Shown: positions 2,953 through 19,241 of the stretch, one piece after another
Position numbering within the stretch: position 1 is the stretch's first letter
Layout of the letters: every line of letters starts with the position of its first letter
Source: a virus
DNA length: 64,000 nucleotides
Direction: 5' to 3' (one strand)
IMG/VR virus record: IMGVR_UViG_3300027822_000297
The notes under the pieces: generated by a model
Database searches by the model: none
What the model was told of the DNA's origin: nothing
The model's input: only the letters and a program-made list of their open reading frames with translations
Program-made: the position numbers and the translations under genes

Positions 2953-3046
2953 TAACTCTAGGAGAAGTAAAACAAGGAAGTTGCATTGCAACAACCTAAG
3001 TTTAGTTGAGGAATGACAAATAGCTACTTAATTATTTGATCTAATA

Positions 3047-3085
3047 AAAAAATAACTTGCATTTATCTTGTTACTATATTAATAT
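3047..3085 (+). promoter_or_regulatory. Repeated phage promoter, copy 1
   Basis: AAAAAATAACTTGCATTTAT; TTGCAT-17-TAATAT. Confidence 0.75.
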
Positions 3086-3156
3086 TGACGTTAAATTAAA
3101 CGAGGATGTAATGTGGATACAATGCAAGCATTTTTGATTGGCGAGGCAAAGAGCAA

Positions 3157-3393
3157 ATGAAAACTTATCAATACATTATAAATGATCGTGAGTACAGGAT
3201 AAAAAACACATTTAAAGGGATGGATTATTATGGAAAATGTGAGCGTTGTGGTAAAAGTATAGCAGTACATTACAAGCAGCAGTCAAGAAAAATAGGCAGA
3301 GTTAAGAATGGTTGGAGTGTCGCTGGATTTGGTCATGCAGAGTGTTTAAGGAATGGTGAGTGGGAAAATGCGCCAATTGTAGACGATGAATAA
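3157..3393 (+). CDS. Hypothetical phage protein
   Basis: 78-aa ORF with CERC motif, early in the promoter 1 operon. Confidence 0.6.
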   Translation: MKTYQYIINDREYRIKNTFKGMDYYGKCERCGKSIAVHYKQQSRKIGRVKNGWSVAGFGHAECLRNGEWENAPIVDDE

Positions 3394-3475
3394 AAAAATA
3401 TTTATATTTTTAATAGGAAAGAATTAGAGCGCAGAATTGTTGATTGGAAATGATAGATTTAAATGAGAGCAGCCA

Positions 3476-3670
3476 ATGAAAGCAGATATCCCCTTGTTAA
3501 TAACAATCCTTGGAAACGAAGATGAAATCTTTGTTGATGTTGATTACTTAATAAAAGACAACTCTGGTATACAAATTAATACAATCATGTATGGGAACCT
3601 GGATATTGAGCCGTTAATAAACCCAGTTCAGCTTGACGCGATAAAGGCTTGTTTACCAGATGATGCATAA
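3476..3670 (+). CDS. Hypothetical phage protein
   Basis: 64-aa ORF, coupled to the next ORF. Confidence 0.5.
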   Translation: MKADIPLLITILGNEDEIFVDVDYLIKDNSGIQINTIMYGNLDIEPLINPVQLDAIKACLPDDA

Positions 3671-3920
3671 AAACCAGTGGCTCCGTAATTTAAGACTATG
3701 GAGCAAGGTTATAGTCCGATGGGGGCCAGGAATTATAAATTCTGAGGTTAAAATAGTTAGCAAGATAAACACACAAACTATAGAATTAGAAGGCAGTTCT
3801 ATTAGTTATAGTTTGTTTTCTGGGTTATCTATCGGTAGTGAGGGATGGGATGAGCAGGTATGTTTAGAAGAAGCAACATCAGAAAGATTAGAAAAATATG
3901 AATTTAAAAAAATACAATAG
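3660..3920 (+). CDS. Hypothetical phage protein
   Basis: 86-aa ORF. Confidence 0.5.
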   Translation: MMHKNQWLRNLRLWSKVIVRWGPGIINSEVKIVSKINTQTIELEGSSISYSLFSGLSIGSEGWDEQVCLEEATSERLEKYEFKKIQ

Positions 3921-3944
3921 TGCGTAATAGTTAAATAAATAGTT

Positions 3945-4196
3945 ATGGTGATAAAAATGGCTAAGTTAAAAGTTTATGGTGGATTAACATTTGTTAATGG
4001 AAAACAACTAAGAACAATTATTGCAGAAACATCACAGAAAAAAGCAAGTAAAAAGCTTGGTATTACTCTTGGAGATTTACGTAATTACTGGAGTGCCACA
4101 GGAAACAAAATTGAGGTTGATATGGCAACCAGTAAGCCTGGGTTTGTTTTTAAGGCAAGTACCAGCATGGGTAGTGATTTTAAGTTGGATGAATAA
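3945..4196 (+). CDS. Small phage protein, possibly DNA-binding
   Basis: KLKVYG...GKQLRTIIAETSQKKASKKLG...RNYWSATGN pattern seen in phage ORFs. Confidence 0.6.
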   Translation: MVIKMAKLKVYGGLTFVNGKQLRTIIAETSQKKASKKLGITLGDLRNYWSATGNKIEVDMATSKPGFVFKASTSMGSDFKLDE

Positions 4197-4246
4197 AAAG
4201 ATGAGGCTATTGAATCGATTGCAGCTTTACAAGATGTTTTTAAACT

Positions 4247-4678
4247 ATGAATTTTGAAACTGAAGCCGATCGTTGGGATCATGTAAATTCTTTAAAAAGC
4301 GAGGGGTTATCTAACAGTAAAATAGCAAAAATAATAGGTGTAAGTCCTGATAGAGTAAGGCAGCTTATAGCTAAACATGGGAAACAAATAAAGCAAGAAT
4401 GTGGTTGGAGTGCTGGACTAAAGAGAATAACGGCAAATTTGTTAGAAAGGAATGGGTATCAATCACGAAAGGCAGTCTATTTGTCATTCAAGACTAAGCA
4501 GCTTATGAAAGACGCTAGGATAGGTCCGGCCACTTATAATGAAATAGCAGCATGGCTAGGCGAGCCAGAAAAGGAGATATATAAAGCATCGCCAGATTAC
4601 ACGGTTGAAACAGCCATAAAATTTTTAAATAAACGAGGTTATGAGGTAAAAAAACGTGAACGATTCAAGATCATTTAA
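4247..4678 (+). CDS. HTH DNA-binding protein
   Basis: GLSNSKIAKIIGVSPDRVRQL helix-turn-helix; second domain resembles RNAP alpha-CTD (RIGPATYNEI). Confidence 0.6.
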   Translation: MNFETEADRWDHVNSLKSEGLSNSKIAKIIGVSPDRVRQLIAKHGKQIKQECGWSAGLKRITANLLERNGYQSRKAVYLSFKTKQLMKDARIGPATYNEIAAWLGEPEKEIYKASPDYTVETAIKFLNKRGYEVKKRERFKII

Positions 4679-7392: not shown

Positions 7393-7992
7393 ATGAAAAA
7401 ATATATTATAAGTTTAGTATTATTGATGGTTGCCACTAGCTCACAAGCAGTAGTGACTTTTGAATTTGAAGGTATGTTTGGTGATGTGGACAGTAAATTG
7501 TCTGATGCATTCAAGGTCGGTGATAAATTTTATGGAAGTTATTCATTTGATGAAAATACAAAACCATCAAGTGAATTTCCTGTTCTGGTGCTTGAGGATT
7601 CGGTAACCAGAATGGATTTTGATAGTTCTAATTATGTAGCCTCTGCAAATAATGGGAATATTATTTATGATGTTGAGGATTACCCGTATTTTGAAGCTAA
7701 TTCAATAGGCGAATCAATCCAGGCGTTAGATGTTAATGGTAACAAATTGGAACGAATGGCATTTTCTTGGGACAATCCAAATGACGTATTTGATATAGAT
7801 GAAATGCCGTATAAATTTTTGCCTGATAATGCTTATTTTTCGTTAGCTTTTCATAATGAAGATGGTTATTTAGATGTGTTAGGTTCGGTAACATCAGCTA
7901 CTGTAGCTCAAACGCCGATACCTGGAGCAGTGTGGTTAATGGGGTCAGGCCTTGTTGGTTTGTTAGGTTTAAAGCGCAGCAAGGCGGTGTAA
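7393..7992 (+). CDS. Secreted VPLPA/PEP-CTERM exosortase-substrate protein
   Basis: Signal peptide ending SSQA; C-terminal TPIPGAVWLMGSGLVGLLGLKRSKAV (Pro motif, TM helix, basic tail). Confidence 0.85.
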   Translation: MKKYIISLVLLMVATSSQAVVTFEFEGMFGDVDSKLSDAFKVGDKFYGSYSFDENTKPSSEFPVLVLEDSVTRMDFDSSNYVASANNGNIIYDVEDYPYFEANSIGESIQALDVNGNKLERMAFSWDNPNDVFDIDEMPYKFLPDNAYFSLAFHNEDGYLDVLGSVTSATVAQTPIPGAVWLMGSGLVGLLGLKRSKAV

Positions 7993-17534: not shown

Positions 17535-17634
17535 TTCTTAAGCCTTTATATTATGTAAGTTAATGATAACTATAGTATAATGAATAGATTAATATTTATA
17601 TTAAATACGATAATTGAGATTAAATCACAAAAAC

Positions 17635-18273
17635 ATGATAGAAAATAAAGAAATATTTATTGAGTACTTAATATCTAGTGAACTGATACCAGATGAAAAT
17701 AATAATCGCACACATACAAGAGAGCAAATAGAATCAATAAAATCTAGTATTAAAGAGTTTGGATTTACGAATCCAATTCTTGTAGATGAAAATAAAGAAA
17801 TAATAGCAGGTCATGCAAGGTATGAAGCATCACAAGGTTTAGGATATGAAACTGTTCCCTGTGTAACTTTATCAGGATTAACAGAAGTTCAAAAAAGAGC
17901 TTATGTTATTGCAGACAATCAATTAGCTATAAACGGAAGTGATTGGGATTTAGATAAATTAAGGCAAGAAATACAGTATTTAGATGACGTTGGGTTTGAT
18001 ACTGATTTACTTGGGTTTGAAGATGAAGCTATGCTGGATTTATTAAATAATGTAGATGGTGTCGATTTACCTATTTTAGCTGATGGAGATAAAGAGCCAT
18101 TTCAACAAATAACCTTTACATTACACGATGAACAACATGAAATTATAGTCAATGCTTTAACTCTTAGTAGAACTAACCCGTTAGTTGATACAGGAATGAA
18201 TGATAATAGTAATGGGAATGCCATTACTTTAATATGCAACCAATGGTTAGAGGCGAAACATGCCAACAGCTAA
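17635..18273 (+). CDS. ParB/Sulfiredoxin-domain protein associated with DNA modification
   Basis: SIKEFGFTNPILVD...IIAGHARY; paralogous to the N-terminus of 29474-30739; start placed at ATG 17635. Confidence 0.85.
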   Translation: MIENKEIFIEYLISSELIPDENNNRTHTREQIESIKSSIKEFGFTNPILVDENKEIIAGHARYEASQGLGYETVPCVTLSGLTEVQKRAYVIADNQLAINGSDWDLDKLRQEIQYLDDVGFDTDLLGFEDEAMLDLLNNVDGVDLPILADGDKEPFQQITFTLHDEQHEIIVNALTLSRTNPLVDTGMNDNSNGNAITLICNQWLEAKHANS

Positions 18274-19033
18274 AGATATCGTTATTAAATCCATAGCCGC
18301 TACAGATGCCAGGCGCATTATTAAAAGGTTACATTACAGCGGTAAGGTAGTTAATAATTCTGTTTTACATTTTGGCGTTTTTTTAAATAATAAATGTGAA
18401 GGTGTTATGTCTTATGGCTCACCTTTAGATAAACGTAAGGTTTTGTCTTTGGTGGATGGTACGGGGTGGAATGAAATGTTTGAATTAAATAGGATGGCAT
18501 TTAGTGAAAAGCTGCCACGTAATTCTGAAAGTAGAGCGTTAGCTGTTTCTTTTCGTTTAATAAAAAAACATTATTCACATATTAAGTGGATATTGAGTTT
18601 TTCAGATGCAGCTCAATGTGGTGATGGTGCAATTTATAGGGCAAGCGGGTTTGTATTAACGAAAATAACTAAGAATAATCAAATTATTGAGTTTCCTGAT
18701 GGACTAAGGGAAACAAGATTGGTTCTTACCGATGCAAGAAGACCAAGACGTTTAGAAATAGCTAAAAAATATGGGTTAAAAGTAGGCGGCGCTTCATCTT
18801 TAAAGCCATTTATTGATATTGGAGCTAAACCAATTGATGGTTATCAACTTAGATATATATATTTTATAGATAAAAATTATAAGCAAAAATTAACCGTGCC
18901 AATAATCCCTTTTTCAAAGATTGACGAAATGGGTGCAGGAATGTATAAAGGTTTAAAGCGTGTTACAAAGGCTATCTCTGATGACCAATTAGAGAGCGGC
19001 GGTGCGATACCGACCAACACGCTCCAATATTAA
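18260..19033 (+). CDS. mom: Mom-family (GNAT-fold) DNA adenine hypermodification enzyme
   Basis: HYSGK...HFGVF...G.MSYG..., ELNRM....PRNSES, ILSFSD..Q..G.IY.ASGF motifs. Confidence 0.85.
   Translation: MPTAKDIVIKSIAATDARRIIKRLHYSGKVVNNSVLHFGVFLNNKCEGVMSYGSPLDKRKVLSLVDGTGWNEMFELNRMAFSEKLPRNSESRALAVSFRLIKKHYSHIKWILSFSDAAQCGDGAIYRASGFVLTKITKNNQIIEFPDGLRETRLVLTDARRPRRLEIAKKYGLKVGGASSLKPFIDIGAKPIDGYQLRYIYFIDKNYKQKLTVPIIPFSKIDEMGAGMYKGLKRVTKAISDDQLESGGAIPTNTLQY
18958..19026 (+). ncRNA. D-armless tRNA-Gly-like RNA embedded in the mom 3' end
   Basis: Acceptor GCGTGTT/AACACGC then T and CCA; anticodon arm CTCTGA-TGACCAA-TTAGAG; T-arm GGCGG-TGCGATA-CCG(A)CC. Confidence 0.75.
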
Positions 19034-19124
19034 ACCTGAATATCTTATAGGTATGAGCGTTCCTCCTGTAATGATGGCTCAAATATCTCATCAAATATAT
19101 AGACAATGTCTGGGTAAAAAATAA
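19026..19124 (+). pseudogene. C-terminal remnant of a C5-cytosine DNA methyltransferase
   Basis: Own translation NIKPEYLIGMSVPPVMMAQISHQIYRQCLGKK*, a motif X variant; frame closed upstream at 18990. Confidence 0.75.
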
Positions 19125-19165: not shown

Positions 19166-19241
19166 ATTCCTATCGTCCAGTTGGTTAGGACATTAGACTT
19201 TCACTCTAAAAACACGGGTTCGAATCCCGTTAGGAATACCA
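19166..19241 (+). tRNA. tRNA-Glu (UUC)
   Basis: Full cloverleaf: ATTCCTA/TAGGAAT acceptor, TTAGA-CTTTCAC-TCTAA anticodon arm, GGTTCGAATCC T-arm, encoded CCA. Confidence 0.95.

Follow-up and report, generated by a model that had tools for sequence, protein, structure and literature searches.

Why should the closing codons of a phage gene for a DNA-hypermodifying enzyme read, as RNA, like a glycine tRNA? The question is raised by a locus in the IMG/VR virus record IMGVR_UViG_3300027822_000297, from which a stretch of 64,000 nucleotides, referred to here as the window, was analysed. A Mom-family gene with a GNAT-type product of 257 residues lies at 18260..19033 on the plus strand, and its codons 233-256, within the last 25 of the gene, are the site of a 69-nt tRNA-Gly-like fold at 18958..19026 on the same strand. 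An initial annotation, made from the sequence alone, took this RNA to be a private glycyl donor for the enzyme. Comparison of the locus with its relatives suggests, at a probability of roughly 0.65, that the element is the gene for a small, non-translating, tRNA-Gly-like glycyl carrier dedicated to the ParB-associated subfamily of Mom proteins.

The assignment of the gene to the Mom family proved sound. Residues 7-220 match the PF25680 profile with an E-value of 2.7e-50 and 171.3 bits against a curated cut-off of 27.1, a second profile match was obtained to phrog_1384 (E 6e-46), and the core of the protein is 39% identical to Mom of phage Mu. Mu Mom transfers glycine from Gly-tRNAGly to the N6 of adenine in double-stranded DNA (Silva et al., Nat Commun 2026, preprint 2023; PMC13219725); the donor that the initial annotation had named is thus published for Mu Mom. 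The enzyme accepts all three E. coli tRNAGly isoacceptors, rejects Gly-tRNAAla and probably reads the acceptor end. Mu scavenges host tRNA for this purpose, and a phage-borne tRNA-like RNA is not mentioned by Silva et al. (PMC13219725).

The fold in the window is real. The minimum free energy of 18958..19026 is -25.4 kcal/mol compared with -14.4 +/- 2.8 kcal/mol in dinucleotide shuffles (z -3.9), with none of 200 shuffles as good, and the element has a G+C content of 54% against a background of roughly 25-40%. Its relatives form a short class of 68-70 nt without a D arm, in which the window element is placed, and a long class of 74-76 nt. The element scored 85.4 bits with model R1. Model R2, a covariance model from 48 long-class relatives, provides an independent check because it contains no window sequence and no short-class member; its sole match in the 64-kb window was 18958..19026 (48.9 bits, E 4.6e-11).

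At the outer end of the fold, the 5' acceptor strand GCGTGTT (18958..18964) forms a perfect stem of 7 bp with AACACGC (19016-19022), which is followed by the discriminator U73 (19023) and an encoded CCA (19024-26); the whole 3' end, 19016..19026, is supported by family conservation as well as by the sequence itself. There is no D stem here, as initially annotated, or elsewhere in the short class, but the region is not unpaired as had been supposed: two pairs at 18971..18972, G18971-C18997 and C18972-G18996, extend the anticodon helix in place of the D arm, and GC/CG alternates with CG/AU at these positions, giving 10-11 double changes among 35 short-class sequences. The anticodon-like hairpin at 18975..18995 has a stem of 18975-82 with 18988-95, all pairs of which covary, and a loop GACCA at 18983-87, with A-C-C at 18984-86 (C35 at 18985 and C36 at 18986). 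The 7-nt loop originally drawn does not stand, since T18982-A18988 (32:38) is a covarying pair (CG in 14, GC in 11 and UA in 5 sequences) and the window loop therefore has 5 nt. G33 in place of U33 is indeed found in the window, but it is not conserved in the family. The T arm at 18998..19015 is composed of GGCGG (18998-19002), a 7-nt loop UGCGAUA with G53-U-G-C, and CCG[A]CC (19010-15), in which A19013 is bulged.

Canonical tRNA features are thus only partly present. The element has the 7-bp acceptor stem, the discriminator, the CCA end and, in its T arm, C56, but not the D arm with G18 and G19, the 7-nt anticodon loop carrying U33 or the regular 5-bp T stem. The Rfam tRNA model RF00005 gave no match to the window element at E<=10 and ARAGORN made no call on it; among its relatives ARAGORN called three of 73. 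From work on E. coli, the G3-C70 pair is an identity element for glycyl-tRNA synthetase (GlyRS). The other determinants are G1-C72, C2-G71, U73, C35 and C36 (Rietmeyer et al., 2020/21; PMC7826273). As the initial annotation had it, the set is complete in the window element, and it is essentially invariant across the family.

The family was assembled from a protein search that returned thousands of Mom homologues, from which 160 loci with close homologues were fetched (80 from viral contigs and 80 from bacterial genomes or metagenome-assembled genomes of many phyla). The two size classes were aligned separately because MAFFT on mixed sizes misplaces the 5' acceptor strand. An initial peptide-pattern search, together with the picking of 5' strands, biased the collection toward acceptor-stem pairing, which was offset by the model searches, by controls with slid or shuffled partners and by R2. 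For 35 short-class elements, RNAalifold predicted the acceptor stem, the long anticodon-like helix and the bulged T arm, with compensatory changes at 14 of 21 pairs; 94.3% of cells were paired, compared with 71% after column shuffling and 33-44% with slid partners, and 166 double-change cells were observed where 44.5 were expected. The 48 long-class elements were predicted to fold as a full cloverleaf that includes a D stem of 4 bp, with 17 of 22 pairs covarying and 97.2% of cells paired. Over both classes, the controls were 71-72% paired in shuffles and 33-47% with slid partners.

Across 114 distinct elements, the GlyRS identity positions are strongly conserved. GCG is found at positions 1-3 in all 114 and CGC at 70-72 in 112; at least 106 have U as the discriminator, 96 have TCCA and 97 encode CCA, and a CC dinucleotide occurs in the anticodon-like loop of 113. 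Acceptor positions 4-7, in comparison, covary with up to four pair types. The base before CC, equivalent to position 34, is free to be A, U, C or G (loops GACCA in 31, GTCCA in 14, TTCCA in 8, and others), and the loop is 5-6 nt long throughout the family, 32:38 being a covarying Watson-Crick pair. The identity elements being invariant while base 34 is free, the pattern fits the needs of GlyRS and not those of decoding. Nearly all of the distinct elements carry a one-base bulge on the 3' side of the T stem between the third and fourth pairs, and the stem covaries around it (GACGG/CCGATC, GGCAG/CTGACC, GGAGG/CCTACC, AGAGG/CCTACT). The T loop is mostly U/G-G-C-R rather than U-U-C-R.

Could the protein sequence account for this conservation? 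Many Mom homologues end in K-R-X1-K..A...DQ..GG..PT-X2-TLQ, and a motif that recurs so widely might be a functional peptide, with the fold being incidental or due to chance. The residues X1 and X2 are, however, specified by reverse-complement codons (V/N, P/R, D/I, T/C, V/H, D/V, G/T, A/R, V/Y), so that the covariation of the acceptor stem is visible even in amino acids. Among the elements within open reading frames (ORFs), each of the three frames is used to read the 3' half (50, 10 and 3 cases), giving unrelated peptides. The nucleotides of the element are kept alike in the mom frame, in a different frame, after a stop codon and between genes. In the AlphaFold2 (AF2) model of the window protein, residues 1-230 are folded (predicted local distance difference test score, pLDDT, 77-96), whereas the tail read through the RNA element, residues 231-257, has a pLDDT below 50 and no secondary structure. 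The frame analysis refutes an explanation at the protein level, the probability of which is practically nil. On this comparative evidence it is the RNA, and not the peptide, that is conserved, because the element occurs in three frames, across the stop, downstream, upstream and antisense; all stems covary, and the conservation goes beyond protein constraint. That the 25-residue peptide arising from read-through of the RNA gene has no conserved role is the best explanation. A reading as an attachment site or integration remnant was also rejected, as both acceptor strands are present and covary.

The linkage to Mom genes is close. The element was found in 147 of the 160 loci with R1 and R2 (with ARAGORN for one duplicate locus), and two of the 13 loci without it are contigs that end at the gene. 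It lies on the mom strand in 145 of the 147 loci. Relative to the mom stop codon, it was inside the ORF in 69 cases, across the stop in 25 and downstream in 36, mostly 6-36 nt past the stop, with eight cases (nine before de-duplication) at 650-905 nt. Of the two distant cases inspected, L101 has another mom paralogue in between and L096 an unrelated gene; in L101 two tandem Mom paralogues lie at 2968-4492, the second matching PF25680 with an E-value of 7e-50, and one common downstream element. The two antisense copies, L056 1751-1823 and L159 3717-3790, lie opposite the 3' end of mom; in the former the D loop is near-normal and contains GG and the T loop reads TTCGATT, but the T stem is still bulged and CCA is not encoded. 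In five whole genomes (1.6-7.3 Mb) the sole R1 match at E<=1 adjoins mom. The sharing of nucleotides between enzyme and RNA that the initial annotation emphasised therefore holds for the window, but it is not conserved, given the 36 downstream loci, others upstream and the two antisense. The coupling proposed with it, in which RNase P cleavage truncates the mom mRNA, is for the same reason no family feature, and at most a local side effect.

The linkage was also approached from the side of the element, by scanning species-representative genomes with a 29-nt pattern for the 3' half. Chance matches to this bare pattern are frequent in high-GC DNA, and only complete elements were therefore counted; 66 of 118 matches had no full acceptor stem and no Mom was found with them (for nine of these the flanks were too short for a judgement). 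The 52 complete elements divide into 23 located after a Mom gene, at least 12 at its 5' side, seven that were not assessable and ten with no Mom detected in the fetched flanks, so that 35 of 45 assessable elements adjoin a Mom gene. The 5'-side cases lie directly upstream of, or in the first codons of, genes of a more distant Mom subfamily (largely Chloroflexota/Dehalococcoidia), which bears out the expectation that some homologues would start with the GG..PT..LQ peptide. R1 matches these 5'-embedded elements and hence places them in one family with the window element. The element is duplicated in tandem in L027 and in Psychrobacter phage vB_PmaS_Y8A, which is in culture. In this phage, two unannotated copies with a UUCCC loop each, at 7786-7853 and 7858-7926 of OQ059336 (3162-3229 and 3234-3302 of the fetched locus L162), occupy the space from mom to the small terminase gene. 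With its floating position and tandem duplicates, the element behaves like a trans-acting gene.

How, then, might such an RNA serve Mom? The element would be transcribed together with mom and released by the ordinary enzymes that process tRNA ends. Host GlyRS would add glycine to it, using G1-C72, C2-G71, G3-C70, U73, C35 and C36, and Mom would take this glycine for N6-adenine hypermodification of phage DNA, by a chemistry demonstrated for Mu Mom only. The bulge in the T stem, at pairs that EF-Tu reads, the closed loop of 5-6 nt and a D arm that is missing or lacks GG would exclude the RNA from EF-Tu and the ribosome, and Mom may thereby gain a private donor pool free of competition with translation. 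In the window, the mom ORF would simply continue through the RNA gene. The carrier interpretation is well supported by comparison, and excision, glycylation, use by Mom and exclusion from translation are what we infer from it.

Several observations weigh against this proposal. Mu Mom works without the element, with E. coli isoacceptors sufficing, and a private carrier is therefore not a general requirement; within the fetched flanks the element was found neither in Mu nor beside five distant Moms (JD024, pAEv1818, PX29, Alsa_2, PM87). Conversely, no Mom was detectable in the fetched flanks of the ten complete elements noted above, including L181, L182, L205, L233, L242, L257, L272 and L220, the last with its copy 7 nt before a tRNA-Cys; these may serve another enzyme or be remnants. 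The enzyme itself also departs from Mu Mom. The Mu key residues H58, Y59, R111, S124, D149 and Y159 (the numbering of the Mu paper is that of GenBank plus 10) are kept in the window as H25, Y26, R78, S91, D116 and Y126 and are invariant in 31 homologues of the subfamily, but the essential R151 of Mu is replaced by Q119 (codon 18614-18616), an invariant glutamine in the same 31. The handling of the donor or the chemistry of this subfamily may accordingly differ from that of Mu, and so may its product, because of that invariant glutamine. GlyRS might not accept a closed 5-nt loop, nor RNase P a bulged T stem. Evidence of expression, processing or charging was found for no member of the family. 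The window itself was matched only by a marine metagenome DNA run. For the prophage copy in Gallibacterium anatis (L086), no RNA run containing it was found, and the reads of four runs cover neither mom nor the element, which is uninformative either way. Downstream of that element, L086 3434-3762 attracts thousands of reads from three runs that match only in part, at 90-95% identity, with mom devoid of reads; the pile-up looks like repeated or conserved sequence of another organism.

The main rival to a carrier is a role in cis on the mom transcript, where the structure would set mRNA ends or stability, or would be bound by Mom for autoregulation of a toxic enzyme, and would never donate glycine. 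In favour of this, 145 of 147 loci have the element on the strand of mom, no more than about 40 nt from the end of the conserved core, Mu mom is tightly regulated according to its annotation, and Mom recognises tRNAGly acceptor features (PMC13219725). A stability element, however, needs neither invariant C35 and C36 nor an encoded CCA, the placement relative to start and stop codons is not fixed and switches between the 5' and 3' ends, and copies 650-905 nt away, antisense, in tandem or orphaned in tRNA clusters are difficult to reconcile with action in cis; such a role is considered unlikely. Where the RNA lies inside the ORF, as in the window, the overlap might act as a switch, in which a reading ribosome melts the fold and yields full-length Mom while excision leaves a stop-less mRNA whose product is tagged and degraded; or charging might take place before the RNA is cut from the mRNA, so that the glycine would go in cis to the enzyme being synthesised. 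We regard this as quite improbable; if true, each transcript would give either enzyme or carrier, which would set their ratio.

Two further alternatives grant the likeness to tRNAGly and differ on its use. The RNA might be a decoy or buffer that soaks up Mom or another activity directed at tRNA-Gly, such as a host GNAT toxin or an anticodon nuclease, and so protects host tRNAGly or limits the toxicity of Mom. It resembles tRNAGly yet looks unfit for translation, and a GNAT toxin that acts on Gly-tRNAGly, TacT, is among the work cited in PMC13219725; the constant partners are nevertheless ParB and Mom only, with no associated toxin or nuclease gene, and a decoy for an anticodon nuclease should retain a normal 7-nt loop, all of which leaves this role with a slim chance. 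To our knowledge, the ACC anticodon is not used for glycine in bacteria, and the frequent A at base 34 speaks against an ordinary phage tRNA-Gly for glycine decoding that merely happens to lie beside mom. Phages often carry tRNAs, a normal tRNA-Glu lies 140 nt downstream in the window, and ARAGORN calls a few long-class members tRNA-Gly(UCC). Against this, the Watson-Crick pair at 32:38, the loops of 5-6 nt, the T-stem bulge and the D arm that is absent or without GG are all foreign to a decoding tRNA, the Rfam model misses the window element, ARAGORN recognises so few of its relatives, and the linkage is specific to one enzyme family. A decoding role appears very improbable.

A locus of this kind has been on record since 2011. 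In Dehalococcoides ssrA islands, McMurdie et al. (2011; PMC3146451) described a 'pseudo-tRNA' of 76 bp, conserved and tRNA-Gly-like, within the first 150 bp of a mom homologue and adjoining a ParB gene, and proposed no function; the initial claim that no such system had been described thus has to be withdrawn. The window element belongs with that locus by common covariance model, bulged T stem and adjacency to Mom, and shares with it the GCG/CGC acceptor, U73, CCA and ParB in the module. The Dehalococcoides form, located at the start of mom, is a full cloverleaf of 76 nt, in contrast to the D-armless 69 nt in the last 25 codons here, and the window Mom is of a different subfamily and from a marine phage. 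The connection to a tRNA-dependent enzyme follows from the work of 2023-2026, and no publication linking the tRNA-like locus to the tRNA-dependent Mom enzyme was found in the literature searched.

Mu Mom and the window protein are both of the PF25680 family and have six of seven key residues in common, and a glycyl ester on a tRNAGly-type acceptor end would be expected as donor for both. Mu differs in that it encodes no such RNA, uses host isoacceptors, has Com and no ParB partner, and carries R151 at the position of Q119. For the carrier proposed here, a functional analogy is offered by the non-proteogenic (NP) tRNAGly of staphylococci, which have UGC in the T loop, escape EF-Tu and supply the GNAT-fold Fem transferases (PMC7826273). 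NP1-NP3 can be charged by GlyRS and are diverted from EF-Tu to a GNAT-fold transferase (PMC7826273), as the window RNA may be. UGC for UUC in the T loop is common to both, as pointed out in the initial annotation along with the bulged A, here A19013, which proved to be a nearly universal bulge of the family. The staphylococcal species, by contrast, are full-size cellular tRNAs found in staphylococci only that feed cell-wall synthesis, whereas the window RNA is borne by a mobile element, goes with an enzyme that modifies DNA, and differs in the bulge of its T stem and the closure of its anticodon loop. Membership in the staphylococcal lineage was rejected, given the restriction of that lineage to staphylococci and the absence of a Fem gene here, and the likeness is functional only. 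Plant RNA viruses also have tRNA-like structures that can be aminoacylated and stand at the 3' end of a coding RNA. Those structures have pseudoknotted acceptor arms and act in the replication and translation of an RNA genome; the window RNA has a plain 7-bp acceptor stem, and its family is often found outside ORFs.

The constant neighbour of mom and the RNA is a ParB-like gene: in each of the 145 assessable loci it lies directly upstream of mom and in the same orientation. In the window it encodes a ParB N-terminal domain (17614..18273, plus strand; PF02195, E 1e-08; phrog_620, E 1e-50) and overlaps the start of mom by 14 nt. ParB-methylase fusions are frequently present downstream of the ParB-Mom-RNA cassette (L096, L101). 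The normal tRNA-Glu(UUC) of the window was recognised at 19166-19241 (plus strand) by ARAGORN and, with 72 bits, by Rfam, and no terminator-like site was found between it and the tRNA-like element on the plus strand. Right after the CCA, 19026-19124 (plus strand) can be read as 32 residues that are 65-69% identical (E about 1e-6) to the very C-terminal end of DNA methyltransferases from phages of Cellulophaga and Flavobacterium, and the remainder of the methyltransferase gene is absent. Most of a methylase gene seems, from this remnant, to have been replaced by the cassette, and a marine member of the Bacteroidota may be the host of the phage. Residues 4-140 of the window Mom are also weakly similar (E 4e-6) to the C-terminal portion of phrog_559, which carries the annotation HNH endonuclease; this suggests that Mom-nuclease fusions exist in other phages.

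Should the RNA prove to be charged and to serve Mom, this would be the first virus or mobile element to supply the aminoacyl carrier for DNA hypermodification itself. Such a carrier would parallel the cell-wall tRNAs of staphylococci and explain how competition with EF-Tu for Gly-tRNAGly is avoided. The family would constitute a widespread class of tRNA-derived RNA, present in many phyla and missed by standard tRNA finders, and the window would provide a clear case from nature in which one set of nucleotides specifies both an RNA gene and the tail of a protein. A compact cassette of two or three genes (ParB, Mom and the RNA) would then be available for direct testing of the donor requirement, and the cultured Psychrobacter phage vB_PmaS_Y8A, with its two copies, makes the carrier idea testable now.

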